NCBI GenBank assembly: GCA_035478995.1
Contig: DATIJE010000004.1
Location: 6,218-70,217 of the forward strand
Direction of reading: 5' to 3'
Origin: Rhabdochlamydiaceae bacterium
GTDB taxonomy: Bacteria; Chlamydiota; Chlamydiia; Chlamydiales; Rhabdochlamydiaceae
DNA: 64,000 nt
The notes beneath the pieces were generated by a model. It ran no database searches, was not told the DNA's origin, and saw nothing but the letters and a program-made list of their open reading frames with translations. Every line of letters starts with the position of its first letter. Positions within the stretch are counted from its first letter, which is position 1. Position numbers and translations under genes: made by a program. Of the stretch, positions 12,379 through 46,702 are shown piece after piece.

Positions 12379-12462
12379 ATTCTTGACAATCCTTCTTTAG
12401 AATTCCTAGGATACAAAATGAGCCTCGTGTTTCAAAAATCTCAAATAAGAAGGAGTTCCTAC

Positions 12463-13266
12463 ATGAAAAAAGAAATCGCTTCTTTATTCGTTCTTTTGCT
12501 GACATCTGTTTCAGGATGGTCGATGGATGAATCACAAATGACTGAGATCAAATGTTCCGTAAAACCCATTGACAGATCGAAAATCCATCCAAAGGAAGCT
12601 TTCGGCCAAGCCGTTAGCTCTAACTGGAGCGGGTACGTCTCATCCTCAAATTTTCAACAACCTGTTCCAGGTTCTGTAAGCTACGCTGCCGGAGATTGGA
12701 TTGTACCAACTCTTTCTTCGACACCGGATGATAGCTATTGTGCAATCTGGGTAGGGATCGATGGTTATTCCGATGGAACTGTTGAACAGTTAGGCACATC
12801 TCATAACTGGATATCAGGCGCTCAGCAAAATTATGCCTGGTTCGAGATGTATCCGAATGGATCGTTCGAAATCAACGGTTTTCCCTGCGATAACGGAGAT
12901 GAAATCAGCGTTCGAATCGGCTATAAAGGAAATGATTATTTCAAGATGGTCATGTTCAATCACACAAAAGGGGTCTTTACAACCATTCCTGCTTCTTATA
13001 CTACATCCTCCGGTACTGTGAGAAATTCTGCTGAATGGGTTGTGGAAGCTCCATTTTCCGGTTCGATCCTCCCATTGTCCGATTTCCGGGTAGCTACTTT
13101 AAACTATTGTTCGGCAATCATCAATGGCGTCCAAGGCTCGATCAGTGATCCGCAATGGATGAATGATTCGATTAATATGGAAAATACCGATGGTACAGTA
13201 AAAGCCGTAACATCGGACCTGTCAAAAAATGGAAATTCTTTTTTTGTCTCATGGGAACATGAATAA
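12463..13266 (+). CDS. Peptidase family G1 (eqolisin / glutamic peptidase), secreted
   Basis: SNWSGYV, AIWVGIDG, VEQLGT (catalytic Gln), AWFEMYP, GDEISV and AEWVVEAP (catalytic Glu) are collinear with scytalidoglutamic peptidase blocks. I chose the ATG at 12463, which is preceded by AAGGAG at -7. The signal peptide starts MKKEIASLFVLLL. Confidence 0.75.
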   Translation: MKKEIASLFVLLLTSVSGWSMDESQMTEIKCSVKPIDRSKIHPKEAFGQAVSSNWSGYVSSSNFQQPVPGSVSYAAGDWIVPTLSSTPDDSYCAIWVGIDGYSDGTVEQLGTSHNWISGAQQNYAWFEMYPNGSFEINGFPCDNGDEISVRIGYKGNDYFKMVMFNHTKGVFTTIPASYTTSSGTVRNSAEWVVEAPFSGSILPLSDFRVATLNYCSAIINGVQGSISDPQWMNDSINMENTDGTVKAVTSDLSKNGNSFFVSWEHE

Positions 13267-17575: not shown

Positions 17576-18289
17576 ATGAAAATAAAAATTTTGGGAACCA
17601 GAGGCGAAATTGAAGAATCCCTGCCTTATCACTCCAAACACAGCGGGATCTTGATCGATGATAAACTGATGTTGGACCTGGGCGAGAAGGAATTCTTAAA
17701 ATATAGACCAAAGTGGATCCTTCTCACTCACCTCCATCCCGATCACGCCTATTTCGTGCGTAGAAAGGCCGAAGAAATCCCTCCTGATCACATCCCGATC
17801 TATGCTCCAGAAACTTCCAAAAAAATCCCTAACATGCACATTCTTCAAAAACAGATCAACCTATCCAGTTACTCTATCACCCCCATCCCCACCCATCATA
17901 GCAAACTGGTAAAATCCCAAGCCTATTTGATAAAGAAAGGGAAGCAATCCGTTCTCTATACAGGAGATCTTGTCTGGATCAACAAAGAATACCACGATCT
18001 CTTCGATCAGGTGGATTTAGTCATCACAGAAGCAAGTTTTTTGCGCAAAGGCGGGATGATCAGAAGAGATAAAGAAACCCATGAAATCTTCGGACACAAT
18101 GGAATACCCAACCTGATCGACTTGTTCAAAAAGCACACAAAACACATTCTATTCATCCATTTTGGCTCCTGGTTCTACAAGGATACCAAAGCCTCCAAAA
18201 AACAATTAATCGCCCTCGGCAAGGAAAAAGGGATCCGATCCATCGTAGGCCGCGATGGCTTAAAGCTCGATCTTTCCACTTTGAAGTAG
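17576..18289 (+). CDS. MBL-fold metallo-hydrolase
   Basis: It has the THLHPDHAY (HxHxDH) motif. I chose the ATG at 17576 (MKIKILGTRGE) over 17555. Confidence 0.7.
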   Translation: MKIKILGTRGEIEESLPYHSKHSGILIDDKLMLDLGEKEFLKYRPKWILLTHLHPDHAYFVRRKAEEIPPDHIPIYAPETSKKIPNMHILQKQINLSSYSITPIPTHHSKLVKSQAYLIKKGKQSVLYTGDLVWINKEYHDLFDQVDLVITEASFLRKGGMIRRDKETHEIFGHNGIPNLIDLFKKHTKHILFIHFGSWFYKDTKASKKQLIALGKEKGIRSIVGRDGLKLDLSTLK

Positions 18290-18796
18290 GCTAGGTACTG
18301 TACTTTTAAAGCCATCGATAAAACCACGTGCATATGCCTGTACATGAATTGTAAAATCTACAGGTATTTTTTGATTTATTGTTGTAGTGTCAATTGCAGT
18401 TCGAATCCCGATTCTCCTTTCATTCGATAATTGATTGTATTGTTCAACAATGTTCGATTTTTCAGATTCCCAAGCTAAAGTCGATAAGATGAGATCATCT
18501 AGATCGAATCTACTTTTTTTAAACCATTCTCTAAACGTCGCACCATTCAATTTTGGCTTGAACCCAAAAGTTCTTTGAATAAGATTGATCCAAAGCCGAT
18601 CATTATTTGCCAGCTTGTTGCATTCTTTATTGACCAAGCTTACCTTGAGTAAATCTAAGGCGCTGAGATAAGAAAAAAAACTTAAGACGATCTCCACAGG
18701 AAATTTACCCGAAAATGAAAAGTACGGCCCAGCTTCCGTTTGTCGCGCCACATGCCCTATTCTCCCCACCTCCATACCCATATCTAATCTCTTCAA
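18260..18796 (-). CDS. F-box domain protein (eukaryote-like)
   Basis: PVEIVLSFFSYLSALDLLKVSLVNKECNKLANNDRLWINL matches the F-box consensus LPxEILxxIFSYLxxxDLLxxxLVCKxWxxLxxDxxLW. Confidence 0.7.
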   Translation of the reverse strand: MKRLDMGMEVGRIGHVARQTEAGPYFSFSGKFPVEIVLSFFSYLSALDLLKVSLVNKECNKLANNDRLWINLIQRTFGFKPKLNGATFREWFKKSRFDLDDLILSTLAWESEKSNIVEQYNQLSNERRIGIRTAIDTTTINQKIPVDFTIHVQAYARGFIDGFKSTVPSLLQSGKIEL

Positions 18797-21612: not shown

Positions 21613-22122
21613 TTAAGCGCAGCGCTTACAAGCTTCGGTGTTGATGCCTGATTTGAAGAACTGCCCTTCAGCGATTTTTGAGAGAGTTTTATCGGCGTGG
21701 CTCTCTTCTTTGGCAGAGTGGTCGAGTAATTTTTCCACTTCTTTAAGTTTAAACTGTTTAGCGAAGGCTTTTAAGGTGCCATAGGCTGCAATCTCATAAT
21801 GCTCAATTCTTTGCACTGCATGGATCAGCGCTGCATCTTTAGCCATGCGGTCATAGTGGAATTTACCCACATCGGCTGCTTCTTTTAGAAGATTTTTCAT
21901 AATTTGGCATTCTAGCCCCGATAGCTTCTCGTCGATTTCGGAGGCGATTGCTTCTAATCGTTTGATTTGGACTTTGGTTTCTTCTAAGTGATGATTAATA
22001 GCTTTCTTCAGTTTAGGAGAGGATGCAGCATTGGCAAGTTTTGGAAGAGCTGCGGCAATTTGTTTTTCCGCGCTGTAGATCCGTTTGAGCTCGTTGACGA
22101 ACAAATTATAAAAGTCCTTCAT
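21613..22122 (-). CDS. Ferritin-like DUF892 (YciE/YciF family) stress protein
   Basis: LFVNELKRIYSAEKQIAAALPKLANAASSPKLKKAINHHLEETKVQIKRLEAI matches the YciE/YciF helix pattern. Confidence 0.75.
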   Translation of the reverse strand: MKDFYNLFVNELKRIYSAEKQIAAALPKLANAASSPKLKKAINHHLEETKVQIKRLEAIASEIDEKLSGLECQIMKNLLKEAADVGKFHYDRMAKDAALIHAVQRIEHYEIAAYGTLKAFAKQFKLKEVEKLLDHSAKEESHADKTLSKIAEGQFFKSGINTEACKRCA

Positions 22123-22135
22123 GGAAAGCTCCTTT

Positions 22136-22399
22136 TTATCTTCTTCTCTTTTTAATTCTATGTTTCACTTCACGTTTGATTTGCTTCCTAATCTTATTTC
22201 TTGCTTTTAGTATTTTTTTCCCTTTTGCCATCACTTCATCTTTGGTGTCTTTCATATCATGCATTTTGTGCATGAAGACTTTCTGCAGTCTCTTTCCCTC
22301 GTCTGTGGTAAATAACAATGTGGCAAGGATGATTCCCAAAGTTCCTCCGACAAAAGCCCCCAAGAATAAATTCTTACACTGATGTTCAGAATGGAACAT
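22136..22399 (-). CDS. YtxH-like small membrane stress protein
   Basis: LGAFVGGTLGIILATLLFTTDEGKRL (Gly-zipper TM followed by a G-K-x-x-R type segment). Basic tail. Confidence 0.5.
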   Translation of the reverse strand: MFHSEHQCKNLFLGAFVGGTLGIILATLLFTTDEGKRLQKVFMHKMHDMKDTKDEVMAKGKKILKARNKIRKQIKREVKHRIKKRRR

Positions 22400-22410
22400 A
22401 TAGCCTCCCC

Positions 22411-22713
22411 TTAACGTTTCTTCAATTTATTCCACAATTGAATGCCCATAGCTGTCCAATCTAAAATATCGACGATCGTGTCTTCATTTTTTTCAATTTT
22501 TCGATCGAATTCCCGAAGGGTACCTTCAGGATCTTCTAAATGGTGTTTCACCGATTCTCCTACATGGGCGAGCGTTTCCCCAACTGCATGAAGCGAACCA
22601 CCCTTTTTATGGCATCGGACTGCATGTAGAATGGCTATGGTGCCTATTCCTACTGCGGCGCCGATCACGGCTCCCAATACGAAATTTTTTGTATCTTTGT
22701 CGTTATTGGACAT
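22411..22713 (-). CDS. YtxH-like small membrane protein
   Basis: It has an N-terminal Gly-zipper TM, LGAVIGAAVGIGTIAIL. Confidence 0.4.
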   Translation of the reverse strand: MSNNDKDTKNFVLGAVIGAAVGIGTIAILHAVRCHKKGGSLHAVGETLAHVGESVKHHLEDPEGTLREFDRKIEKNEDTIVDILDWTAMGIQLWNKLKKR

Positions 22714-22719
22714 ACTCTC

Positions 22720-23112
22720 TTAGTCCCCCTTAAGTTTTTTAAATAGAAGAATCCCTTGGGAAATATAATTCATGATATTCGATACTTTTGCGTAATTATC
22801 ATGTTCATCTTCTTCTGACTTTTCTTTGTTGATCTTAAAAAGAGGTCGAAATAAAAAATTTAAAGATTCTGTTTTCTTTTTAATGTCTGTTGTTAATTCG
22901 TTTGCCACTTTAATTAATTTCACACTCTCTCCTGATATATCAACTAATTCGTGCTCTAATTTATTTAAAATATGTTTAGTTTGCTTTAAACTAGCAGCAG
23001 CATTTTTCAAAGTTATAATTAAGAATACAACTAATATTACAAATGCAAATGAAATGACTGCAACGCAGATTTCAAAGATCATGTTAGCACCTATAAATTT
23101 AGATTGAATCAA
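22720..23112 (-). CDS. DUF948-like membrane-anchored coiled-coil stress protein
   Basis: It has one N-terminal TM (ICVAVISFAFVILVVFLIITL) followed by a coiled-coil segment. DUF948 and YtxH genes are commonly neighbours. Confidence 0.5.
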   Translation of the reverse strand: MIQSKFIGANMIFEICVAVISFAFVILVVFLIITLKNAAASLKQTKHILNKLEHELVDISGESVKLIKVANELTTDIKKKTESLNFLFRPLFKINKEKSEEDEHDNYAKVSNIMNYISQGILLFKKLKGD

Positions 23113-24058: not shown

Positions 24059-24571
24059 TTATTTTCCTGTCTCGCCGGACTTGCCTTTTTTGCCAAAAAA
24101 CCTCCCAAGAAAGAAATCAATCGAAAAAGGCCCTGGACCGAAGACAAAGATGAGGATGGATGCAAACAGAAAAGTAAATGGCGTTCTGGTAACGAAATTT
24201 TGCATATCGCTAAAAAACATAGCAAAGGCCCTCGCCTCGGCTGTGAGGTAGGCCACGATCATATTAATGATCAGCGGGATCGCAACTAGCCTTGAAGCAA
24301 ATCCGAAGAAAAGGCATATGCCGCATAGAAACTCGATGAGCGAGGCTACATACGCGCTGAAAGCCGGATGCCCGATTCCAAGAGATTCGAAATACGAGAT
24401 GACTTGATCCATATTTGTCAGCTTTCCCAGTCCGGTCCGGATGAACATCCAACCCCAGAAAAGACGGATGAACAATAGGAGGAATGGCTGCAAAAAATTA
24501 CCGACCATCACCAATACAGAATAGGCGCTTCTTAGAAAGTTGAACATATACGGCCTCTCTATGTAACTCAA
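24059..24571 (-). CDS. DoxX family membrane protein
   Basis: LLLFIRLFWGWMFIRTGLGKL plus four TM segments. Confidence 0.7.
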   Translation of the reverse strand: MSYIERPYMFNFLRSAYSVLVMVGNFLQPFLLLFIRLFWGWMFIRTGLGKLTNMDQVISYFESLGIGHPAFSAYVASLIEFLCGICLFFGFASRLVAIPLIINMIVAYLTAEARAFAMFFSDMQNFVTRTPFTFLFASILIFVFGPGPFSIDFFLGRFFGKKGKSGETGK

Positions 24572-24618: not shown

Positions 24619-25455
24619 TTAATTGAGGTCTATGATCAACTCTCTCGTGCGTACTGTATCGCTCCATTCCATTTTGAGATTATCCAAAATTTCTATGGTC
24701 TTCAGAAGACTTGTCTTTGTAAAATCAATTTGGCTCATTGCTTTATACAAACTGGGATAGCCAAGAATGTTTGGAAACAGTTTGGTCGCAATCAACCCTG
24801 TATTGAAGACAATAATTGGCTCTTGCTCCCAGACAGATCCTTTTTCTTTATTTAATATCTGTTTAAATCTAGGTGAACCATATTCAGCGGGAAGAACCAC
24901 AATCTCCCAAATATTTTTCACTGTCCATTTATCATCCTCCATTATTACTTTTAAATTTTCCGGGATATATTTCCCGATGTCTATATCGTCTATCCATTCA
25001 GGTCCTTTTTCCAATAAATTCGAGTACATTCTGGAATGCATTTTTTTTGTAAAAAAAAGGACTATTTCCAATCTTTCGATAGGCGTGATTACATTTTTTT
25101 CCAATAAGTTCAACAAGTGCTGTTCTTCCACTGGAATAACCGGTTCTGTTGCAACCGTACTATCCAGAGAAGGCGCAGGTTCCTCAGGAAGTGAAAGCAC
25201 CTGTTGAAGAAATGCTTCAGCATCTATGTTTTCTGGTTCTTGAATCACAATCTCGTTCGTTTGACATCCAGTTAAATGATCTTGATATGCATCCCGTTCA
25301 TCGGTGACTTCTTCGGAATCACCAAGGATGATATCCAATTCATCGCCATAAACTCCTGTCCATCTTTTTTCTTTCTGAATTGGTTCACTATAATTTTCGA
25401 ATCCTTTCGAAAAACTATAATGGGAATGAAACTGAATAGACATAGTATTATTCAT
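24619..25455 (-). CDS. Hypothetical protein
   Basis: 278-aa ORF with an acidic central region. No signal peptide and no recognised family. Confidence 0.4.
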   Translation of the reverse strand: MNNTMSIQFHSHYSFSKGFENYSEPIQKEKRWTGVYGDELDIILGDSEEVTDERDAYQDHLTGCQTNEIVIQEPENIDAEAFLQQVLSLPEEPAPSLDSTVATEPVIPVEEQHLLNLLEKNVITPIERLEIVLFFTKKMHSRMYSNLLEKGPEWIDDIDIGKYIPENLKVIMEDDKWTVKNIWEIVVLPAEYGSPRFKQILNKEKGSVWEQEPIIVFNTGLIATKLFPNILGYPSLYKAMSQIDFTKTSLLKTIEILDNLKMEWSDTVRTRELIIDLN

Positions 25456-25601
25456 AACTTATTAATTAAATCTTAAACCTATCTTAACATATGCAATATT
25501 TCAACTTATTTTTTAGAGATAAAGTAAAAAAAAATTTTAAAAAAATGAAGACTCTGAAATAATGAGAATATAGTTCCCCTAATTCAACAAGGAGATCTCC
25601 C

Positions 25602-26024
25602 ATGAAAAATAAGTATATTAAATTGAGCTCTTTAGCAGCTCTAAGCTTAGTTACAGGAGCAATGTCCCAAGGATGCGCGAAATGTACCGAGCCTTCTTCG
25701 GAGCAGGCTCAACAGATGATGTCTCAACTCGATCGATCTCATCAAAAGATGTACAATTCAATGGACTGCGAAGGCAAGAACATGGCGATGAGAATGGTCA
25801 ACCAATCATGCGCCGGGCAAAATTCTTGCGCGGGGGAAAATTCTTGTGCTGGAGCTAACAATAGCTGTGCTGGAATGGGTTCATGCAAAGGAACCAGCAA
25901 AGGACCATTCACAGACAAGAACAAAGCTGTTGAAATGGCATACAATAAAATGAAGATGAAAAGATCGGGATCAATGGGCAATCAGCAAAATAACAAGAGC
26001 AACAACGCCAAAAGTGGTTATTAA
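25602..26024 (+). CDS. Secreted Cys-rich RiPP precursor candidate (bufferin-like)
   Basis: AAGGAG lies 8 nt upstream of the ATG and there is an N-terminal signal sequence. The core is QSCAGQNSCAGENSCAGANNSCAGMGSCKGTSKG, with five SC(A/K)G repeats. It sits immediately upstream of, and overlaps, the DUF692 gene. Confidence 0.6.
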   Translation: MKNKYIKLSSLAALSLVTGAMSQGCAKCTEPSSEQAQQMMSQLDRSHQKMYNSMDCEGKNMAMRMVNQSCAGQNSCAGENSCAGANNSCAGMGSCKGTSKGPFTDKNKAVEMAYNKMKMKRSGSMGNQQNNKSNNAKSGY

Positions 26025-26838
26025 TTTAGGCATAGGGATCGGGCTTCGACCGGAACATTATGAAGAAATCTTCCAAAAGATGCCCGACATCGACTGGTTT
26101 GAAATCATCAGTGAAAACTACATGGTCGATGCAGGTAAACCCCTAGAAAATTTGGAAAAGATCCTCGAGAGATACCCCGTCGTACAACACGGGGTATCAC
26201 TTGCTATCGGCAGTCCTGATCCTCTTGATTTTAATTATCTTAAAAAACTAAAAGCCCTCGCAAGAAAGACAAAAACCCCCTGGATCTCCGACCATCTTTG
26301 TTGGGGACATCTGGAAGGCGCCCATTTTCACGATCTTCTACCCCTTCCATATACCAAAGAGGTCATCGACTACGTTGTTGAAAGAGCGAAAATCGTCCAA
26401 GATTATTTAGAAATCCCTTTCGCTTTGGAAAATCTCTCATCCTATGTCTCTTTTCAGCAAGATTGTATGACCGAGTGGGAGTTCTATAGCGCGGTGGTGG
26501 AAAAGGCCAATATTTACATGATGCTCGATGTCAATAATATATACGTTTCGAGCAGAAACCACGGCTTTAAACCCAAGGACTATTATGAGAATATCCCCCT
26601 TGAAAGAGTGATCCAGATCCATTTGGCGGGGCATTCCGACTATGGAGACTATGTACTGGACACCCACGACAACCATGTGTGCGATGAAGTGTGGGGTATT
26701 TACAAAGAAGTCTACAACAAGACAAAAGGGGTATCTACTCTTCTGGAGTGGGATGACAACTTTCTATCTTTTGAAGATACCTGGAAAGAAGCCCTGAGAG
26801 CAAAACAATTTCAAGAGAATCATGCAATCCGAACCTAA
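26014..26838 (+). CDS. DUF692 / MNIO (multinuclear non-heme iron oxidative enzyme, MbnB/BufB-like)
   Basis: GIGLRPEHY, DWFEIISENYM, VVQHGVSL, WISDHLCW, LLPLPYT, ALENLSSY, MLDVNNIYVS, IHLAGH, LDTHDNHV and LLEWDDN cover all the conserved UPF0276 blocks. The GTG start overlaps the precursor stop by 11 nt. Confidence 0.85.
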   Translation: MVINLGIGIGLRPEHYEEIFQKMPDIDWFEIISENYMVDAGKPLENLEKILERYPVVQHGVSLAIGSPDPLDFNYLKKLKALARKTKTPWISDHLCWGHLEGAHFHDLLPLPYTKEVIDYVVERAKIVQDYLEIPFALENLSSYVSFQQDCMTEWEFYSAVVEKANIYMMLDVNNIYVSSRNHGFKPKDYYENIPLERVIQIHLAGHSDYGDYVLDTHDNHVCDEVWGIYKEVYNKTKGVSTLLEWDDNFLSFEDTWKEALRAKQFQENHAIRT

Positions 26839-27679
26839 AACTCCTCCTCGACTTTTGACCACTCAAAAATGGTTTGCGAGCATCATTACAAGGCCGATCG
26901 ATATAGACAACCAAATGGTCTCAGTCTCTCCTTCTGGAAGACCAATGTCCGAGGAGGCTCCTGAATTCATCGCTCCAGGCATCAAATTAGCTTCAGACAA
27001 ACGGATTCAAATCTACAATCAGCAATATTGGTGGCGCCTATTTTCCAATCTCCATAAGATTTTTCCCACCCTTACTTGTCTGTTCGGATATAGCGGCTTT
27101 AATCATTTGATCGCAATCCCCTATCTGACCAAATACCCTCCTCGCCATTGGTCGCTCGGTCTACTGGGAAACAAGCTCCTGCAATGGATCGACGAGGACT
27201 ATCATGAGGATGATAAGCTTCTTCTATCTTTGACGGCAGAGCTCGACTTGGCATACCATCAAATCTTCTTTTCTCCTGCTCCTGTCAGATTGCCTTTTTC
27301 CCCAGACCTTCTCACAAAGAAAGTATCCCTGCAGCCTCATTTATATCTGTTCGAGCTTCCATTCGACTTGTTTTCATACAGGACAGCTTTTTTAAAGGAG
27401 AGCGTTCCTTTCTGGCTGGACAATGAATTTCCTCCCCTTCCACAAGAAAGGACCTATTTTTTTGTTCTCTATAGAAGTCAGAGCAATCGGATTGTCTACC
27501 AGGAACTGCAGGAGGGGCACTGGACCCTTCTAACGTTCATAGCCGATGGGATGACCATTGAAGAAGCTTGCGACGCGTTAGAAAAGCAGGGAGGAAAGGC
27601 CTACGAAGAAGCAGCCGAATCCCTTCCAGACTGGATTCAACAATGGGTCCTCGAAGGATGGATCATCCCCCATACGTAA
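26822..27679 (+). CDS. DUF2063-like partner protein (BufC-like)
   Basis: The call rests on position directly after DUF692 with a 17-nt overlap, the size, and the N-terminal TQKWFASIITRP motif. Confidence 0.55.
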   Translation: MQSEPKTPPRLLTTQKWFASIITRPIDIDNQMVSVSPSGRPMSEEAPEFIAPGIKLASDKRIQIYNQQYWWRLFSNLHKIFPTLTCLFGYSGFNHLIAIPYLTKYPPRHWSLGLLGNKLLQWIDEDYHEDDKLLLSLTAELDLAYHQIFFSPAPVRLPFSPDLLTKKVSLQPHLYLFELPFDLFSYRTAFLKESVPFWLDNEFPPLPQERTYFFVLYRSQSNRIVYQELQEGHWTLLTFIADGMTIEEACDALEKQGGKAYEEAAESLPDWIQQWVLEGWIIPHT

Positions 27680-28700
27680 AGACAAGCCTGGGATTAATAT
27701 ACAGCTTGCCATGTCCTCGAACAATCATGGAAGCATGGAAAGGGACGTGCTCGCATACGGAAGGATATTGGTATACGAAAGAACTCATTCTCCAAACGAC
27801 CGCATCAGGAGCTTCATTCAGGATGATTCCTACATTCGGATCTTCTATTCTTGGAAGATTGGATACAGGAGAGGGAATATAAACTGTCCTATGGAGTTTT
27901 TTCAAACTCTCTTGATACATTAAAATTTGATGGTGATGAAAACCTTGTTCCTGCATTTGTTTCATCCACGTCTCTAAGTCATTTGTGACAATTGCAGAAT
28001 ATCTGCAGCCTTCTATCGATGATTTTTTATAAATGCCGCATCCTCCAAAAGCAGAATATACTGGATACCAATCATCCGACTGCGAAAGAGAGAATTGTTT
28101 TTTCATATACCACCAATCGTTGCCCAAAAACTCAGAGCCCAAAGGGTATACAGCGTCTCTGAACGCATACCAATCCCAATAAGTATTCCTTGGATCTATG
28201 CCATAGGCAAAAACAGCATCCCATTCTCTCCCTGATTGAAACACTTCCACGATTCCTCGGAGCGCAGGAGGAATTTTAAAATCCATGTCCATCCAAATGA
28301 TATAGGGAAAATCTTGGAATTCCTCCGACATCGCTCTATCTAAGACAATATTCCTAGCCCTGGCAATTTCTTCCGGTCGATAAAAGTGCCCGTCATTCTT
28401 TACATTAATAATGGATTTAGCGAGATCTCCCCGATTGATGTCCTCGCTTTGAACCAGTACGCGAGAATTCCTTTGACGCCATCTTCGCAATTGGTTTTTT
28501 GTTCCATCGATAGAATTATTCTCATAAACAACGATTCGATAGTCTTGGAACAAAGCCCCGATTTTCTCCATGATTGCTATCGTGTGAGGAAGGCGGCTTT
28601 CCACATCTCTGCAGATACCGCAAATGACCACTTTTTCAGAGATAGCAGAAGCATAGGAGCAGGAGCAAACAACACAAAATACAACAAAAAGAAATCGCAT
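27663..28700 (-). CDS. GT-A fold glycosyltransferase (CAP59/CMT1-like?), signal peptide
   Basis: VVICGICRDVESRLPHTIAIMEKIGALFQDYRIVVYENNSIDGTKNQL resembles the N-terminal block of the CAP59-type mannosyltransferase family. It has the DXD-like motif WMDMDF. N-terminus is MRFLFVVFCVVCSCSYASA. Confidence 0.4.
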   Translation of the reverse strand: MRFLFVVFCVVCSCSYASAISEKVVICGICRDVESRLPHTIAIMEKIGALFQDYRIVVYENNSIDGTKNQLRRWRQRNSRVLVQSEDINRGDLAKSIINVKNDGHFYRPEEIARARNIVLDRAMSEEFQDFPYIIWMDMDFKIPPALRGIVEVFQSGREWDAVFAYGIDPRNTYWDWYAFRDAVYPLGSEFLGNDWWYMKKQFSLSQSDDWYPVYSAFGGCGIYKKSSIEGCRYSAIVTNDLETWMKQMQEQGFHHHQILMYQESLKKLHRTVYIPSPVSNLPRIEDPNVGIILNEAPDAVVWRMSSFVYQYPSVCEHVPFHASMIVRGHGKLYINPRLVFTYGG

Positions 28701-28710
28701 ATTTTAATTC

Positions 28711-29784
28711 CTATCCTGAAGTTTTGTAGGGATAAGCCATGGAATGGATCTTTTCTAACCAGTATTGATTCGTCAATTTTTCACGATAAAGGGGGTTTGT
28801 AAAGGCGTCACCATATTCTTTCACCCATTTTTCTAGATTGCTTTGAGTGATTTCAGACCAGTCCTGGACAATCACAACGGGAAGTCCCTCAAACATGGGA
28901 TCCAGGGTAGAACTTTTTACAATCGCAATGCATCCAAGAACCAAATCTTCCCAAACTCGATGTGTATCCAAGCCATTCCCAAAAGGACAAATCGAAAAGG
29001 CGTAATGCCCTTTTGTTTCCCACAGGGTAGACCGTTTCATGAATCCAGAATAGTCAATAAGCCCAGTAGGAAGAAGGCGCTGGAATATCGTAGTGCGGTC
29101 TTCTCCAAACTGAAGATATCGCTTGTGACCTGCTCTCATCGTATCTGATAGCTGAAAATCCACAAAAGCGCGTAATTTTCGATCATAGGTAGGCGGAAAT
29201 TTCTTTAGGAGATTTTTTAAGACTTCCTCCTGCTGTTTAGGAGAGCCCCTTTCCCCCCATCCTCCAGACACCCCTTTATAAGCTATCGTATGAAAGTCCA
29301 TTCCAATAGGAATATGGCTGACTTTTGAACTATTCCCACAATAATCGTTGTTTTGAGCAAAGACATGAATGATCTTGTCATTTCGCAAAAACTCTTCGAT
29401 GTTAAAATCATTGCCGCAATCCGAGGGAAAGGATTCATCCCCGTCGTTGATGACCAATACAAAAGGATGTTCTACATAAGGGAGAACGTGTTTATTAAAC
29501 GCATCGATGAATCGGCACTGAATCCAGATGATGTCGCCTCGTTTGATCGCCTTATACTTATTTTCATCCAAAGCATTATCTGGAGCAAAGTGTGCAAAAA
29601 ATGCCCGTGGATTTTTTTCCGGACCAATATCGCAAGATGCCGCCATGCCAAGGTTCCAAACATATTCAGTCATTTCCCAAGCATCTACTTTTCCTTCCCT
29701 ATCCCGCCTTCCTTCCCTGGCTATGAGAAGATTCGAAAAGATCAGCAAAAAACAAATTAAAGATTTTTTAAGTACCGATTTCAT
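28711..29784 (-). CDS. Exostosin (GT47)-like glycosyltransferase, signal peptide, paralog of 43213..44100
   Basis: FSICPFGNGLDTHRVWEDLVLGCIAIV resembles the exostosin C-terminal motif F.L.P.G....R..EA...G.IPV. N-terminus is MKSVLKKSLICFLLIFSNLLIA. Confidence 0.45.
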   Translation of the reverse strand: MKSVLKKSLICFLLIFSNLLIAREGRRDREGKVDAWEMTEYVWNLGMAASCDIGPEKNPRAFFAHFAPDNALDENKYKAIKRGDIIWIQCRFIDAFNKHVLPYVEHPFVLVINDGDESFPSDCGNDFNIEEFLRNDKIIHVFAQNNDYCGNSSKVSHIPIGMDFHTIAYKGVSGGWGERGSPKQQEEVLKNLLKKFPPTYDRKLRAFVDFQLSDTMRAGHKRYLQFGEDRTTIFQRLLPTGLIDYSGFMKRSTLWETKGHYAFSICPFGNGLDTHRVWEDLVLGCIAIVKSSTLDPMFEGLPVVIVQDWSEITQSNLEKWVKEYGDAFTNPLYREKLTNQYWLEKIHSMAYPYKTSG

Positions 29785-29922
29785 AGAGACCCTGTTTTAT
29801 CAGATTCAGGAGACTAATGATTGCGATTTTTTTTTACACTTGTTTTTTTGTCGGAGGCGTTATTTGACTTGAAAAATTCAATCCTATTTGAATAGATTGG
29901 CTGAAAAAATGGGGTTCCTAAA

Positions 29923-31062
29923 ATGAAATCAAAAACAATTGTGCCTTGGCTTACATTTCTTATCATAGGCTTGTTCGCAAACCTATCTGCAGACATTGCA
30001 ATCGCACCCAAAAAAGCTCTTATTTTTGGAATTACCGGCCAAGATGGCGCCTATCTTGCAGAACTACTATTGGACAAAAATTATGAAGTGCATGGAGTCA
30101 AAAGGCGTTCTTCTACTAGAAATACAGAACGTTTGGAGCAGATATGTGAAAAGGCAGAAAAAGAAAATAAGCGCTTTTTTCTTCATTATGGAGACCTTTG
30201 CGACAATATAAACATCAGCAATTTGATCCAAACGATCAAACCTGATGAAGTGTATAACCTGGCAGCGCAAAGTCATGTGAAGGTCTCTTTTGAAATGCCT
30301 TTATATACCGTCGATGTCGATGGGATGGGCGCTTTGCGCATATTGGAAGCGATCAGACAGATCGGCCATGAAAAACAAATGAAGTATTATCAAGCATCAA
30401 GCAGTGAAATGTTCGGGAAAGTGCAAGAGACCCCTCAAACAGAAATGACCAACTTTCATCCCAGATCTCCTTATGGTGTCGCGAAAGTGCTGGCCTACTG
30501 GATCACTGTAAATTATAGAGAAGCTTATGGGGTCTTTGCTTGCAATGGAATCCTTTTCAATCATGAATCCCCTTTAAGAGAGGAAACGTTCGTCACTCGA
30601 AAAATCGCTCTCGCTGCATGCCGATACAAATGTGGTTATAACCAAGTGTTACAGCTAGGCAACCTCGACGCCAAAAGAGACTGGGGTTATGCCAAAGATT
30701 ACGTTGAAGCCATATGGCTGATGCTCCAACAAGATAAGCCTGAGGATTATGTAATCGCAACAGGGGAAACTCATTCCGTGCGAGAATTCGTAGAGTTGGC
30801 CTATAAAGAATTAGGCATCGATATTGAATGGAAAGGCGAAGGGATCAATGAACAGGGAATCGATAAAAAAACAGGACGGACCATAGTGAAAGTCAATCCG
30901 GAGTTTTACCGGCCTGCAGAAGTGGACTTTCTCTTAGGAAATGCTGAAAAAGCAAGGCAAAATCTTAAATGGGAACCAAAAACACATTTTAGAGACTTAT
31001 TGAAAATCATGATCGAATCTGACCTTAAAAAAACTGAAGACGAATCTAGAAGGGAAATATGA
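29923..31062 (+). CDS. gmd: GDP-mannose 4,6-dehydratase with a 29-aa hydrophobic N-terminal extension
   Basis: [58 protein letters not shown] and NHESPLR. The extension is [23 protein letters not shown]. An in-frame TTG inside the hydrophobic stretch could be an alternative start. Confidence 0.9.
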
Positions 31063-31913
31063 AAAAACTGATTGCTTATATCCTTTTTTTATTTTTGTGT
31101 TTTCGAGCTGACGCGAAAATCTACAACTTTACAAATGACCCGGTTGACGTGGTCATTCCTTGCACAGACAAAGACTTGGACACCTTAAACTTATGTATAG
31201 AAGGCATCCGCAACAACTGCAGCCAAGTCAGACGGATTATCGTCATCTCAGATCGTCCCCTGACCGATAAAGCTGAATGGTTCGATGAGAAGCAATTTCC
31301 TTTCGACAAAACAAGTGTAGCCTATTATTTACTAGGCTGCAATGAACAGAAAGCCAATGAATATCTTTCTGCTCCTAAACCCAGAGTTGGCTGGTATATT
31401 CAGCAATTGTATAAGTTATACGCCAGTTATGTCATACCTGGCATTTCAACGAATGTCCTCCACCTCGATTCTGATACCATCTTTTTAAATCCTGTTAGTT
31501 TTGTCGATCCGTCCGGCGGAGGACTGTACAACCCCGGTACCGAATACCATATCCCCTACTTTGATCATATTAATAAGGTGCTCCCGGGCCTTACGAGAAC
31601 ATACCGAGAATACTCAGGTATATCTCACCACATGCTTCTGCAAAAAGACGCCTTGGATGAGCTATTCCAATTAGTAGAATCCCACCATAATCTGGATCTT
31701 TGGAAAGTTTACTGTTTGTGCGTGGATCAAAAAGATCTTTTCCTTTCAGGGGCCGCGAGCGATGAGTTGTATTTCAATTTTGTGTTTCCCAGAACAAATC
31801 AAGTGAAACTGAGATTTTTAAAATGGGAGAACATCTCATCTTTGAGAAATATTTTTAGATACCAAAGGGCGGGATATCATTACGTTTCATGCCATTCATA
31901 CTCAAGAAGCTGA
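31059..31913 (+). CDS. Nucleotide-diphospho-sugar transferase-like protein (GT-A-like, DXD), signal peptide, paralog of 42324..43238
   Basis: [34 protein letters not shown] and [10 protein letters not shown] are about 50% identical by eye to 42324..43238. N-terminus is [19 protein letters not shown]. Confidence 0.45.
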
Positions 31914-31929
31914 AAAATAATGAGGAACA

Positions 31930-32643
31930 ATGACAATTCTTAGTAAAGCAAGAAAATTTTTTATTTTTTTTACTATTTATTTAGCTTCTTATAGATGCTT
32001 TTTGTTTTCGGTAGAATTTGATGATTTAACCTATGATTTTCTTTTATCAAACCCATATACCGATCATGTGCAGCATTTCCAGAAGCTCTTTCAGCAAACA
32101 AAAATTACATCATTTCTTGAATTTGGAATCGGCTATGGAACTAAATATTTTTTGGATCATTGTCAGAAAGTAACTTCCTGCGAAATTATTTTCCAAAATC
32201 AAACATCTTTATGGTTTTACCACTCGGTAGATCTATTTCAGAGATGCTCCAATTGGAAACCTATTTTAATGCATGGCGGTACAGCCTTGCAAAACGCGAA
32301 CGAGTTTTGTATTCATAACCACAAAGATCCAGCCCTTTACGAACCAGCTTATTTGCTCGATCTTAAAAGTATTTGCAACGAGTTATTTAAAGATAACCAA
32401 TTTGATGTCGCCTTCGTCGATCCCGGTTTTCACATGAGAGGCGATCTTGTAAATGAACTTTTTGATCGAGTACCGATTATCGTGGCTCATGATACAAATT
32501 ACGTTCCTGAACTTTACGGATGGAATAAAATTCAGATGCCTTCTAACTACAAAAAGGTTGTCTTTACAGAAGGCCAAGGAATTACATTCTGGATACAAAA
32601 CAACAGACCAGAATTAATTGCGGAACTTAGCAAAAGAAATTAA
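31930..32643 (+). CDS. Rossmann-fold methyltransferase-like protein with hydrophobic N-terminus
   Basis: FLEFGIGYGTKYF ... VAFVDPGFHMRGD ... IIVAHDTNY. Confidence 0.35.
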   Translation: MTILSKARKFFIFFTIYLASYRCFLFSVEFDDLTYDFLLSNPYTDHVQHFQKLFQQTKITSFLEFGIGYGTKYFLDHCQKVTSCEIIFQNQTSLWFYHSVDLFQRCSNWKPILMHGGTALQNANEFCIHNHKDPALYEPAYLLDLKSICNELFKDNQFDVAFVDPGFHMRGDLVNELFDRVPIIVAHDTNYVPELYGWNKIQMPSNYKKVVFTEGQGITFWIQNNRPELIAELSKRN

Positions 32644-32671
32644 ATTGGTTTTTGAATCACACTCGGTATGG

Positions 32672-33673
32672 TCATAAAGAATAAAAGAAGGGAAGTCTTT
32701 TTTTGTTATTTATATGCAAGTTGTTAATGCGCATTTGTTTTCCGTTGTATGATATGAACGGGACCCGCCTCCCTTCTAAATCGATCTTCCAATCAATGGT
32801 AAAATGAGAAGGATTATAGATACAGAAAGCAGAAATTACCCCTGGCTCTGAGGCTGCATGCCAGTAAGGATCCCACCCGCCCAAATAAATTCCAAAAGCT
32901 GCTGCATCAAAAACGGAAGCAAAATCATCAATATAGTTAGAATAGAATAAAAATTCATTCGACTTTTGCGAAAGTTCTAGCTTGTGGTCCTCAATGTATT
33001 CAGATGTAAGTACCGGCAAATAATCAATAAAGACCTTAAGATAATTATTTTTGAATTGAGCAATCGTTAACATATCATTCATTTCAGAGTTAACGTAATC
33101 AGGAAATGAATTTATCAAATGACCTAGAGGCACGGAATTTGCGATATAAAGAAAGCCTGCAACACACCGTGAATCTGTTTCAAAAGTTGCCCCTATCATG
33201 CCATTATAGTGCTTTCTGAAAACCGGAAGCAGTTCAGATAAATCAACATATAGCATGACGTCATTTTCTAAATGAAATACATCTGAAAGGTTGTACATTC
33301 TGACAAAATCATCGAGGTAAAAAAAACGTTCCGTTGTATATACCCAATACAGTTTGGTATAGTCAGTTCCAATAATTTCATGAGAAACGCTATTCTGAAA
33401 TTTCAAATGTCTTTCCGATAGGATCAAAGATTCACATGAAATAGGAATGACAGAATAACTATTCAATATAGAGGATCCTTTCATGATCGCCTGCTCATTT
33501 GCTATTAAGTAAATTGAGCATTCCTTATTAAACAGTCGTGCTTGAGCAATTGAAAATTCCAAATGATGTGGAAAAGATGGACCGATATGAACAAAAGTAA
33601 TCGAGAATGCGTTCAAAGAAGCTTGAAAGCTCGCAAAAAAAAGTAAAATAAAATATAAAAAATAAAATTTCAT
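32672..33673 (-). CDS. Putative glycosyltransferase (uncharacterised family), signal peptide, paralog of 40239..41234
   Basis: ITFVHIGPSFPHHLEFSIAQARLFN and FHLENDVMLY are collinear with 40239..41234 (IVFIHIGNKLPQYAEIALRQARSFN, FHMEYDNMLY). Confidence 0.35.
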   Translation of the reverse strand: MKFYFLYFILLFFASFQASLNAFSITFVHIGPSFPHHLEFSIAQARLFNKECSIYLIANEQAIMKGSSILNSYSVIPISCESLILSERHLKFQNSVSHEIIGTDYTKLYWVYTTERFFYLDDFVRMYNLSDVFHLENDVMLYVDLSELLPVFRKHYNGMIGATFETDSRCVAGFLYIANSVPLGHLINSFPDYVNSEMNDMLTIAQFKNNYLKVFIDYLPVLTSEYIEDHKLELSQKSNEFLFYSNYIDDFASVFDAAAFGIYLGGWDPYWHAASEPGVISAFCIYNPSHFTIDWKIDLEGRRVPFISYNGKQMRINNLHINNKKRLPFFYSL

Positions 33674-33703
33674 TTATTAACTTTGTCGAAAATCTCTTCC
33701 CAA

Positions 33704-34633
33704 CTATTTTTTGGATCTATGAATTTTTCTTACTTTTTTATATTTATAAAACATTTTTGCACTAGTATTCTGAAAATTTAATCCAACTTCTTCTAAAGGA
33801 ACTGCAAGAGGCGGCGTAGAATAAGTGTCATATTGGATTAATAATGGATTCGTAGCCCGCGTTATCCAAATATATTGCTGATCATAGGGTTGATTTAATC
33901 CCATATAATTCCATGAGTCGAGCCATAAAGTCATGGGATCGTTCTTGATTTCTGAAAACAAATGATAGTAATCGTTTCTTACCAAGATTAAATTTACGAC
34001 GAGAAAACAAACAGGTTCATATCCTTTATTTTTAGCTATATCTATTATAATAGACAATGGTTGGCCTAGGTTTTGCTGAGCAACTTCATCGGGAACTCTT
34101 GTTTGAAATGATGGATGCCAATATCCACTCGATTCAATGCATATCACCTTAGGCTTGCAATCCAAACTTTCTAAAATTAAATAATCTCCACCATCGATAT
34201 CAATAGAAAGTACATCGATCTCTTGATCTGGAAAATTTTGTTGAGTGATCACATCCAACATCTTCCCCCTGTTGTCGGAGGGATTAGATGTAACAAACTC
34301 CTGGATACACTTGACATTGGGAAGCTGATCGCATGTCGATTGAAGTTGAGGTATATAGGCCTCATCGCATTCGATAAATGCCCCACTCCAACCTCTCTCA
34401 ACTAGAAATCTTGTATTAGAGAATAAAACTCCATCGCATGCTCCAAATTCAACAAAGAAACCATGATGAATTTTCATGCGATTTAAAATTTCTTCTAGAA
34501 CTCCTTCTTCCCCATTTTGGGAATGCAATTTCCAGTGTTTATGCAATAAACTAAATTCCTGGTAGGAATCCGTTGCAAAACTAAAATCCATGATACCGAT
34601 GCAGCTCGCAATAAAAAACAAGACTAGTTTCAT
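33704..34633 (-). CDS. FkbM-like methyltransferase, signal peptide
   Basis: FFVEFGACDGVLFSNTRFL..GWSGAFIECDE and VLSIDIDGGDYLIL. Confidence 0.5.
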   Translation of the reverse strand: MKLVLFFIASCIGIMDFSFATDSYQEFSLLHKHWKLHSQNGEEGVLEEILNRMKIHHGFFVEFGACDGVLFSNTRFLVERGWSGAFIECDEAYIPQLQSTCDQLPNVKCIQEFVTSNPSDNRGKMLDVITQQNFPDQEIDVLSIDIDGGDYLILESLDCKPKVICIESSGYWHPSFQTRVPDEVAQQNLGQPLSIIIDIAKNKGYEPVCFLVVNLILVRNDYYHLFSEIKNDPMTLWLDSWNYMGLNQPYDQQYIWITRATNPLLIQYDTYSTPPLAVPLEEVGLNFQNTSAKMFYKYKKVRKIHRSKK

Positions 34634-44150: not shown

Positions 44151-45197
44151 TCATAGTCCCAATCGTTCACTAAAGTAAACAATCGTGGGCTTAAGGCCTT
44201 CATCAAGGGAGACTTTCGGACCCCATTTTAAAACTTGATTGGCTAGAGTCAAATCAGGACGTCTTTGTTTAGGATCGTCTAGGGGTAAAGGCTTGAACAC
44301 GACCTGAGAGTTTGAGTTGGTGAGGCTGATGACTTTTGAAGCGAGTTCCAACATGGTGAATTCTCCGGGATTGCCTATGTTTACAGGTCCCGTAAATTCT
44401 TCTGTCGTATTCATCAGGGCACGGATCGCATCAATGAGATCGCTCACATAACAGAAGGAGCGTGTCTGCTCTCCGTTTCCATACATGGTAATAGGATCAT
44501 TTTTTAAAGCCTGGACGATAAAATTCGAGACGACGCGCCCATCATCCGGGCTCATACGAGGACCGTAGGTATTGAATATCCGTCCCACCTTAATTTTTGT
44601 ACCATAAGCGCGATGGTAATCGAAAAATAATGTCTCTGCGCTTCGTTTTCCTTCATCATAACAAGAACGGATTCCGATTGGATTGACATTCCCCCAATAC
44701 GATTCCTTTTGAGGATGCATTGTAGGGTCTCCATAGACTTCACTTGTAGAGGCTTGAAAGACTTTCGCGTTCCATTTTTTTGCGAGTTCCAATACAAAAA
44801 GCGCGCCGAAAAAATTCGTTTTTATCGTCTGGATAGGATCTTTCTGGTAATGCGGCGGGGAAGCAGCGCAGGCGAGGTTGTAAATTTCATCCAAGGGCTT
44901 ATCGAGATCGAGCGGCTTTGTAATATCATGCTGAATAAAAGTAAAAAGAGGATTTGTTAATAAATGTTCGATATTTGCTCGACTTCCGGTGGACAAATCA
45001 TCTAAACAGATGACTTCGTAACCTTCCTCAAGAAGATGGTCGCATAGGTTAGATCCGAGAAAGCCCGCCCCACCCGTCACCAGGCTGCATTTTTGCCCTT
45101 CTATGGCCTGTAAGAAATTTAACTGCATGAACAAGCATGCTAAAACCAAAATGATATTACTCCATTTTTTCCACATGCGAACGTCCGACGTTTTCAT
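44151..45197 (-). CDS. uxs: UDP-glucuronate decarboxylase (UDP-xylose synthase)
   Basis: [56 protein letters not shown] and [10 protein letters not shown]. The start is ambiguous. ATG 45197 gives an N-terminal TM ([12 protein letters not shown]) and overlaps the ugd stop. ATG 45128 ([11 protein letters not shown]) gives a soluble protein with no overlap. Confidence 0.85.
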
Positions 45198-46575: not shown

Positions 46576-46702
46576 AAAAACTCTCAAATTATTTTTTTGG
46601 GAAAGATAGATAAGGAATTCTTTTTTTGCAAAAAATAATTTGCAATTTGATGATTCCCAAGACAGTTTAGAGGAATTCAAAACTGTCTTGGGAAACTTTG
46701 TA

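Follow-up and report, generated by a model that had tools for sequence, protein, structure and literature searches.

What do three overlapping genes on the forward strand of a Rhabdochlamydiaceae bacterium genome make, and do members of the Chlamydiota possess bufferins (captophorins), which belong to the RiPP systems with the widest distribution? The genes lie in a stretch of 64,000 nucleotides of contig DATIJE010000004.1 (hereafter, the window). As originally predicted, they encode a secreted-type Cys-repeat protein of 140 aa (the presumed precursor; 25602..26024), an MNIO (DUF692) enzyme of 274 aa with a GTG start (26014..26838) and a DUF2063 partner of 285 aa (26822..27679). The reading frames of the precursor and the MNIO overlap by 11 nt, and those of the MNIO and the partner by 17 nt. 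The chlamydia-like origin of the genome was also borne out, as identical proteins in NCBI (HSW85922.1 and HSW85924.1) are named Rhabdochlamydiaceae bacterium. In the NCBI annotation the precursor is a 'hypothetical protein', and the partner a 'putative DNA-binding domain-containing protein'.

The MNIO matches the Pfam family MbnB_TglH_ChrH over its full length (E = 1e-105) and passes the cut-off of the NCBIfam MNIO_BufB model (327.5 bits; cut-off 310), while staying below those of the HvfB (251 bits; cut-off 360), ApyH, ChrH and MbnB models. Using the metal-ligand identities of MbnB (PMC9060507), we mapped the ligands onto 3BWW and 7DZ9 by motif and sequence alignment, not by structural superposition; by this mapping, the nine metal-ligand positions (H59, H94, E139, D172, N175, H203, D216, H218 and E245) and the catalytic Asp, D247, are invariant in 54 MNIOs, in line with the original description of a full-length DUF692 enzyme with every conserved block. 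D247 is followed by a second Asp (D248) and not by Phe, and Asp at this position is the reported signature of MNIOs of the Cys-Lys group (PMC13097082). The enzyme also clusters with Buf2-type MNIOs. Its sequence thus points to a BufB-type enzyme, predicted to convert the core Cys of the precursor to 5-thiooxazoles.

The partner is of the BufC/PME1 type and has an RRE-like C-terminal domain. It passes the cut-offs of Pfam DUF2063 (PF09836; 40.1 bits, cut-off 27.2) and NGO1945_C (PF22106; 32.6 bits, cut-off 27), but it is not an HvfC equivalog, scoring 25.8 bits against an NCBIfam cut-off of 142. No relative of the partner was detectable by sequence in the PDB.

The affiliation of the precursor was less straightforward. 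Buf2 is defined by six (or twelve) conserved Cys and a CysI-CysVI disulfide (PMC11626156, PMC12452194). The NCBIfam model for BufA2 (BUF_6/12Cys; NF050166), with its curated cut-off of 60 bits, gave the window precursor 21.8 bits, over residues 66-99 only; ten other chlamydial-type members scored 24-52 bits and canonical members 82-93 bits. An hhalign comparison, in turn, matched the signal peptide and core to canonical Buf2 with a probability of 98.1% (E = 1.2e-13); the core is likewise built of C-x-G units, and in the alignment the 5-5-6-5 spacing of its Cys is identical to that of canonical Buf2. CysVI is absent from the window precursor, as it is from 28 of the 45 subfamily members, so that the Cys bookkeeping of Buf2 is not directly transferable. 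Because the BufA2 cut-off is failed and CysVI is missing, the precursor is, as judged from its sequence, a member of a distinct, divergent Buf2-like subfamily rather than a plain BufA2 member. Of the two precursor families named in the original prediction, BUF_6/12Cys was thus recovered as homology of the core, below the family cut-off, and DUF2282 was not recovered: the precursor had no match to DUF2282 (PF10048), the mark of Buf1/BufA1, at E up to 0.1. The bufferin reading accordingly survives for the Buf2, or 'Cys-Lys captophorin', branch and falls for the DUF2282 type. We also rejected an HvfA/oxazolin assignment (EGKCG motifs are absent from the precursor, Lys-Cys occurs in it just once, and the HvfB model is below cut-off), as well as methanobactin, chryseobasin and ApyH assignments, all below cut-offs in Pfam and NCBIfam. 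Pfam matches of the precursor to OS-D and DUF6729 were below cut-offs and were ignored.

The precursor begins with a putative Sec-type signal peptide (residues 1-24, MKNKYIKLSSLAALSLVTGAMSQG; 25602..25673). Its n-region is rich in Lys, the hydrophobic stretch spans 13 residues, and the c-region is composed of small residues; hhalign places it on the signal peptides of canonical Buf2. For unmodified residues 25-140, the calculated monoisotopic mass is 12455.35 Da. Cys are found at positions 25, 28, 56, 70, 76, 82, 89 and 95. C25 directly follows the putative signal peptide in a lipobox-like context, SQG|C, that matches a PROSITE-like lipobox regular expression. Then comes a clade-specific three-helix domain (residues 29-67; 25686..25802), seen as an insertion relative to Buf2 in hhalign and modelled by AlphaFold2 as helices 33-40, 45-53 and 56-67 with pLDDT of 81-88. 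C28 and C56 are assigned to the region of this domain. C56 and the N-terminal Cys occur together in 17 of 17 sequences and, since C28 co-varies with C56, the two probably form a disulfide. The 'CAKC pair' noted at the outset is therefore real and can be refined, with C25 at a lipobox-like or signal-cleavage position and C28 co-varying with C56.

The core, QSCAGQNSCAGENSCAGANNSCAGMGSCKG, has the five-fold SC(A/K)G repeat that had been described. It occupies residues 70-97 (25809..25892), and its five S-C-(A/K)-G units follow a 5-5-6-5 spacing; it matches positions 29-62 of the BufA2 model, and tblastn matches from other phyla stack exactly on 25809-25892. An 18-nt DNA repeat is present at 25806-25841, within the stretch coding for the core. 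All 45 sequences have C76, C82, C89 and C95, and 43 of them have C70. The four invariant Cys correspond to CysII-V of Buf2 and are the predicted thiooxazole sites, and C70 corresponds to CysI. Four of the five core sites are Cys-Ala and not Cys-Lys. The MNIO keeps the Lys-pairing Asp despite this.

After the core, residues 103-127 (25908..25982) form an amphipathic helix, F..DKN.AV..A...M..KR, modelled by AlphaFold2 at 106-126/127 with pLDDT of 71-81; D105, N107, A109, M117 and R121 are conserved among homologues. The long Asn/Lys-rich tail, listed earlier among the peculiarities of the protein, is present but is not conserved among homologues. For the Cys core the AlphaFold2 pLDDT was below about 55, and a deeper alignment of 108 sequences brought no gain in confidence there. 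A Foldseek search of the precursor model against the PDB returned nothing below E = 2.9.

Could the MNIO make a different modification on a precursor this divergent: an oxazolone-thioamide, cross-links, or changes to residues of the helical domain? The precursor architecture is new and its sites are mostly Cys-Ala-Gly, and the MNIO superfamily is reported to have a very broad reaction range. The enzyme, however, scores above the cut-off for BufB equivalogs and groups with MNIOs of the Buf2 type, the only Cys invariant across the alignment are the four of the core, and the oxazolin products of MNIO-PME1 clusters were lately reassigned to 5-thiooxazoles (PMC13097082). We therefore regard a different modification as quite improbable, and thiooxazole formation in the core as the preferred reading.

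A comparison of gene neighbourhoods across many phyla placed a homologue of the precursor directly 5′ of an MNIO gene at about 50 of 68 loci. The order precursor-MNIO-DUF2063 is kept across the Chlamydiota, the DUF2063 gene coming after the MNIO gene, including in the cultured, amoeba-infecting Estrella lausannensis. Because the Cys core is invariant (in 45-108 homologues) and the precursor homologue adjoins the MNIO in most loci, the arrangement of the operon is, on this comparative evidence, not due to chance. The Estrella cluster contains a second small Cys-Gly-rich gene. In the window we found no second copy of the precursor, MNIO or DUF2063 gene, and no other candidate MNIO substrate. These observations bear on whether the Cys-rich protein might stay unmodified, as a secreted metal-binding or structural protein, with the MNIO and DUF2063 protein acting on an unlinked substrate. 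Such a division of labour would fit the second gene of Estrella and the 5 of about 14 informative chlamydial loci in which the precursor has no MNIO within 6 kb (L002, L004, L008, L009 and L022). Yet true bufferins, too, often have precursor genes that stand alone (PMC12452194) and, given the overlapping frames, the adjacency at about 50 of 68 loci and the lack of another candidate in the window, we consider it very improbable that the protein is not the substrate.

The subfamily is large, with 239–316 clusters or more when grouped at 90% identity, and every taxon-named member, Estrella lausannensis included, belongs to the Chlamydiota. The combination of helical domain, five-Cys core and C-terminal helix thus appears, from the sequences seen so far, only in this phylum. 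According to a published census, MNIO and DUF2063 genes but no recognised precursor are present in Protochlamydia amoebophila and Waddlia chondrophila; we infer that they may carry a precursor of this subfamily. Neither genus was named among the best 120 matches, most of them nameless, of a homologue search seeded with a member of the Parachlamydiaceae.

The surroundings of the operon were analysed for regulatory and accessory elements. A Shine-Dalgarno sequence, AAGGAG (25589..25594), lies 7 nt 5′ of the precursor ATG. A consensus scan picked out a promoter-like site, TTTAAA-16-AATAAT with a TG extension (25536..25563, forward strand), in the 146-bp AT-rich intergenic region common to the operon and the divergent ORF278-DoxX unit; since the site count in this region is not above shuffled expectation, we take it as weak evidence. 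Neither promoter nor terminator scans around the operon rose convincingly above shuffled background, and an Rfam search of the operon and its surroundings brought up no known RNA element. The DoxX gene predicted about 1 kb upstream on the opposite strand is present (24059..24571; Pfam DoxX E = 9e-22). It is parted from the operon by one lineage-specific ORF and transcribed divergently. The protein scores 62.8 bits against the NCBIfam HvfX family (cut-off 80) and is 44-46% identical to the DoxX proteins embedded in the sister-clade clusters described below and to a DoxX 2 kb upstream in one other chlamydial locus (L075; 44%). This gene may be a displaced BufD-type accessory gene; apart from the window and L075, no chlamydial locus had a DoxX within 6 kb. 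The original prediction treated the lack of DoxX in the operon as a departure from the usual, but it is not anomalous, because DoxX is likewise missing from the Caulobacter operon that serves as the model for Buf2 (PMC11626156). General stress genes encoding DUF892, YtxH and DUF948 proteins are found just upstream of the operon.

No copper-related gene or regulator was found among the 26 window ORFs scanned and in the ±8 kb neighbourhood. The same enzymology might then serve a target other than copper, be it another thiophilic metal (Zn, Hg, Cd or Au) or defence against redox or oxidative stress. Fusions of MerC with bufferins, which suggest other metals for some bufferins (PMC12452194), and the adjoining stress genes are in line with such a role. 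Against it, every characterised member (Buf1, Buf2, oxazolin, fontiphorin and gonophorin) is tied to copper (PMC11626156, PMC13097082), and we judge a target other than copper to be unlikely, if less so than the alternatives considered above.

The BufB-type MNIO, the DUF2063/RRE partner and the Buf2-homologous core together support the original prediction of a bufferin-like RiPP cluster. We put at about three in four the probability that the operon directs bufferin/captophorin biosynthesis of the Buf2 ('Cys-Lys') branch in this Rhabdochlamydiaceae bacterium. For the thiooxazole chemistry, the identity of the modified Cys, export and the role of copper, we reason by analogy with the work on Caulobacter Buf2 and on fontiphorin and oxazolin. 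In Caulobacter Buf2, CysII-V each lose 4.03 Da, and CysI and CysVI are unmodified (PMC11626156). By this analogy, the 140-aa precursor would be synthesised with its Sec signal peptide and, in the cytoplasm, the iron-dependent MNIO and its DUF2063/RRE partner would oxidise C76, C82, C89 and C95 to 5-thiooxazoles, with a change of about -4 Da each. Modification may extend to C70, as the CysVI with which it would normally pair in a disulfide is missing. The product would then be exported by Sec, with release after G24 or a lipid anchor at C25. In the periplasm, a C28-C56 disulfide would probably staple the clade-specific helical domain, and the thiooxazole cluster would sequester copper.

A bolder extension is that the Chlamydiota have a bufferin class of their own: a thiooxazole core on a C28-C56-stapled helical scaffold, with all five core Cys modified as CysVI was lost, sometimes lipid-anchored, and with long forms (200-435 aa) in which dozens of additional Cys-Gly sites are fused into a high-capacity metal sponge, protecting these obligate intracellular bacteria from copper or zinc delivered by the host into the inclusion. 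We offer this as speculation with a small chance of being correct; if true, it would give the phylum its first demonstrated RiPP pathway. Our literature search found no experimentally characterised chlamydial member.

The operon itself is of a well-known type, and what is new is the precursor subfamily; since we expect no departure from conventional enzymology, the advance is incremental and not conceptual. Chlamydial bufferin systems have so far been half-invisible, the current annotation models missing the precursor. Recognition of the subfamily supplies the probable missing substrate for the census genomes that have an MNIO and a DUF2063 protein, and with a profile derived from it, hundreds of chlamydial proteins could be annotated afresh. 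The cluster of the cultured E. lausannensis offers a route to asking whether modified peptides contribute to metal-stress resistance in environmental chlamydiae.

Among known systems, the closest in design is Bufferin 2 of Caulobacter vibrioides (BufA2-BufB2-BufC2, BUF_6/12Cys; 'Cys-Lys' captophorins). It likewise comprises three genes in an A-B-C operon, DoxX being absent, and has a precursor led by a Sec signal peptide (putative in the window), a BufB-type MNIO in which a second Asp follows the catalytic one, a DUF2063/RRE partner and a C-x5-C-x5-C-x6-C-x5-C core built from C-(K/A)-G units. Unlike it, the window precursor has about 40 extra residues, forming three helices, between signal peptide and core, the additional C28/C56 pair, mostly Cys-Ala sites, and a conserved C-terminal helix in place of the CysVI tail, so that CysI is left without its disulfide partner. 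The nearest non-chlamydial MNIOs (53-56% identity) belong to Buf2-like clusters of Verrucomicrobia, Planctomycetota and Acidobacteriota (for example, L017, L028, L029, L046 and L055), which form a sister clade in the NJ tree and share the core Cys pattern. Their precursors, however, are short (about 100 aa), with neither the helical domain nor the C-terminal helix, and carry a sixth Cys spaced x5 after CysV, and their DoxX gene is inside the operon, directly after DUF2063. Oxazolin, fontiphorin and gonophorin (HvfA-type, EGKCG 'Lys-Cys' captophorins) also rely on an MNIO and a DUF2063 partner, with Cys converted to 5-thiooxazole and a function in copper handling, but their precursors contain repeated EGKCG units of five residues, and in their MNIOs the catalytic Asp is followed by Phe and an Arg-Arg pair lies close to the N-terminus. 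Bufferin 1, finally, differs in its DUF2282 precursor, in which two of the four Cys are modified, and in the DoxX of its operon, whereas the enzyme pair is the same as in the window and the export logic the same as that predicted there.

ORF calling in the window returned the three plus-strand genes exactly where the original prediction had placed them: the precursor gene (25602-26024; 140 aa), preceded by a strong ribosome-binding site (AAGGAG), the gene for the DUF692 enzyme (MNIO; 26014-26838), which starts with GTG and overlaps the precursor gene by 11 nt, and the DUF2063 gene (26822-27679), which overlaps the MNIO gene by 17 nt. The gene call of GCA_964386375.1 (L069:9344-10078 in the locus from that assembly) gives the last protein a later start and 244 aa; the 285-aa form overlapping the MNIO gene is supported by other gene calls and by a Pfam domain that starts at residue 14. 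The precursor contains eight cysteines (25, 28, 56, 70, 76, 82, 89 and 95), and its hexapeptide repeat is seen in the DNA as an 18-nt tandem (25806-25841). The genome had been called chlamydia-like, correctly so, because the identical proteins in NCBI, HSW85922.1 ('hypothetical protein') and HSW85924.1 ('putative DNA-binding domain-containing protein'), belong to a Rhabdochlamydiaceae MAG; the same locus is also present on CAYLRP010000002.1 (GCA_964386375.1) and in three sequencing-run assemblies. No known RNA element was found in or around the operon, and no metal-related neighbour among the window ORFs scanned.

Downstream, a glycan-biosynthesis neighbourhood (27663-34633 and 45157-46731) converges on the operon; it encodes a GT2/CAP59-like glycosyltransferase, whose gene overlaps the DUF2063 stop by 17 nt, GDP-mannose 4,6-dehydratase, an FkbM-type methyltransferase and UDP-glucose dehydrogenase. 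Elsewhere in the window, a 1447-aa ribonucleotide reductase large subunit (58837-63180, plus strand) carries a LAGLIDADG domain, probably an intein, inserted at residues 775-824. A plus-strand ORF (12418-13266) has a match to Peptidase_A4 (E 6e-28); these glutamic peptidases are known mainly from fungi, so that a chlamydial one would be unusual. An F-box-like protein (precomputed Pfam PF12937; approximately 18261-18782, minus strand, mapped from L069:660-1181) has a eukaryote-like domain, as would be expected of an effector that interacts with the host.

Pfam MbnB_TglH_ChrH matches the MNIO from end to end (E 1e-105), and NCBIfam MNIO_BufB gives the enzyme 327.5 bits (cut-off 310); the HvfB, ApyH, ChrH and MbnB models in the NCBIfam scan did not reach their cut-offs. 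The metal ligands of MbnB (His54, His90, Glu133, Asp163, Asn166, His192, Asp208, His210 and Glu239; PMC9060507) correspond, when the motifs are aligned with 3BWW and 7DZ9, to H59, H94, E139, D172, N175, H203, D216, H218 and E245; none of these nine positions varies among 54 MNIOs from related loci, and neither does D247, which occupies the place of the proposed catalytic base. D248, a further Asp, directly follows the catalytic one, and of the N-terminal Arg-Arg pair the second Arg is missing; both traits have been reported for the 'Cys-Lys' group of MNIOs, BufB2 included, in contrast to the EGKCG group (PMC13097082). The partner exceeds the Pfam cut-offs for DUF2063 as well as for NGO1945_C.

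Chlamydial MNIOs are 78-81% identical to that of the window, and all others 41-56%. In a neighbour-joining tree without bootstrap support they form one clade, with a sister clade from Verrucomicrobia, Planctomycetota and Acidobacteriota, whose operons end in DoxX. The window does encode DoxX upstream on the opposite strand, at 24059-24571, as first reported; the protein is 44-46% identical to DoxX of the sister-clade operons and 44% identical to DoxX encoded two genes upstream of the cluster on a 2.4-Mb chlamydial contig. None of the other chlamydial loci had DoxX within 6 kb. Buf1 was able to function without DoxX, and in Caulobacter the buf2 operon has none (PMC11626156); the window DoxX is possibly a displaced accessory gene, not a core part. 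A 278-aa acidic ORF between DoxX and the operon (24619-25455, minus strand), without a Pfam or NCBIfam match, is probably co-transcribed with DoxX, and looks like a lineage-specific insertion because none of the 68 related loci has it. Immediately upstream of the genes for DUF2652 and DoxX is a series of small stress-type genes (DUF892, YtxH-like, a 100-aa ORF and DUF948; 21613-23112, minus strand).

In Caulobacter Buf2 the four central cysteines each lose 4.03 Da upon conversion to thiooxazoles, and CysI and CysVI stay unmodified, probably joined to each other by a disulfide (PMC11626156). Among 45 diverse members of the precursor subfamily, C76, C82, C89 and C95 (CysII-V) are invariant and C70 (CysI) is kept in 43; CysVI occurs in only 17, and the window protein lacks it. 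An N-terminal Cys at the position of C28 was found in all 17 proteins having C56, versus 3 of the 28 others (Fisher p = 1e-9, phylogeny ignored), and this co-occurrence suggests a disulfide between C28 and C56 that is specific to the clade. The residues around C25 resemble a lipobox and meet a PROSITE-style rule, as in 13 of the 45 members, and about 16% of Buf2 proteins are predicted to be lipoproteins (PMC12452194); lipidation at C25 and cleavage by signal peptidase I behind G24 are equally possible.

An exhaustive profile search gave 450 subfamily representatives (50% identity) at E < 1e-3, 268 of them at E < 1e-10; the best 150 of the 450 all match over the helical domain, the core and the C-terminal helix. 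Searches at 90% identity gave at least 239 and at least 316 clusters, none carrying a Pfam annotation. All hits with a taxon name are Chlamydiota (Rhabdochlamydiaceae, Parachlamydiaceae, 'Chlamydiota bacterium' and the cultured Estrella lausannensis), and several full-architecture loci come from MAGs labelled just 'bacterium'. Many members are 200-435 aa long (P0029, P0030, P0034, P0040, P0089, P0096, P0122 and P0163 of the profile search, and the related locus L003:5236-6339), with a C-terminal module of about 100 aa (helix, core, helix) following Q/P/G-rich low-complexity regions; the many extra Cys-Gly motifs of these regions (SHGCG, HGCGG, ASCGG and similar) might serve as additional MNIO sites or simply as thiol ligands. 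In Estrella the gene order is Cys-Gly-rich small secreted protein, precursor, MNIO, DUF2063 and MFS transporter; the first, a 151-aa protein directly upstream of the precursor (L074:5469-5924) with the motifs AAGCGGGGACGG, HSCGG and NGCGQQNGCGG and no NCBIfam match, may be a second substrate. Five loci of chlamydial MAGs (L002, L004, L008, L009 and L022) have a subfamily member with no MNIO within 6 kb; stand-alone precursor genes exist here, like those reported for other bufferins.

Systems of this kind are covered by work on bufferins (PMC11626156, PMC12452194) and captophorins (PMC13097082), where MNIOs of the Planctomycetes/Verrucomicrobia/Chlamydia group receive one sentence only; none of the papers searched deals with a chlamydial system. 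Protochlamydia amoebophila and Waddlia chondrophila are each listed with one DUF692, one DUF2063 and one DoxX, and with zero Buf1, Buf_6-12Cys and Buf_EGKCG precursors (PMC12452194, supplementary genome table). These counts are consistent with a subfamily that escapes the published signatures, its members in those two genomes being putative. The window precursor belongs to no Pfam family and matches NCBIfam BufA2 weakly, over residues 66-99 only (21.8 bits; cut-off 60); likewise, all chlamydial-type precursors tested fall below this cut-off, and their MNIOs exceed that of BufB.

A scan for relatives with one genome per species gave 68 loci, about 50 of which have the MNIO gene directly after the precursor relative. 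The non-chlamydial relatives are regular Buf2 proteins (BufA2, 82-93 bits), with the consensus V-x-C-x-G-x-N-x-C-K-G-Q-S-A-C-x-x-A-x-N-x-C-K-G-Q-N-x-C-K-G-Q-G-W...C. Profile-to-profile comparison aligned the chlamydial clade with canonical Buf2 (probability 98.1%, E 1.2e-13) over the signal peptide and core only, and the window core has the same Cys spacing, 5-5-6-5. The window precursor differs from Buf2 in an insertion of about 40 residues between signal peptide and core, predicted by AlphaFold2 with good confidence (pLDDT 81-88) as three helices (residues 33-40, 45-53 and 56-67), and in a conserved, predicted C-terminal helix (residues 106-126) where Buf2 has the CysVI tail. The Cys core is poorly modelled, and the model had no structural match in the PDB. 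By analogy, the cluster most likely works as Buf2 does: a cytoplasmic complex of MNIO and partner would turn core cysteines into 5-thiooxazoles, and the product would be exported by Sec and sequester metal in the periplasm, possibly as a membrane-anchored form. For this chemistry, the number of modified cysteines (four or five) and a role in copper, we infer from the known systems. The cluster is a genuine bufferin/captophorin member at the enzyme level, and its precursor belongs to a distinct subfamily, so far named only in Chlamydiota and at present unannotated.
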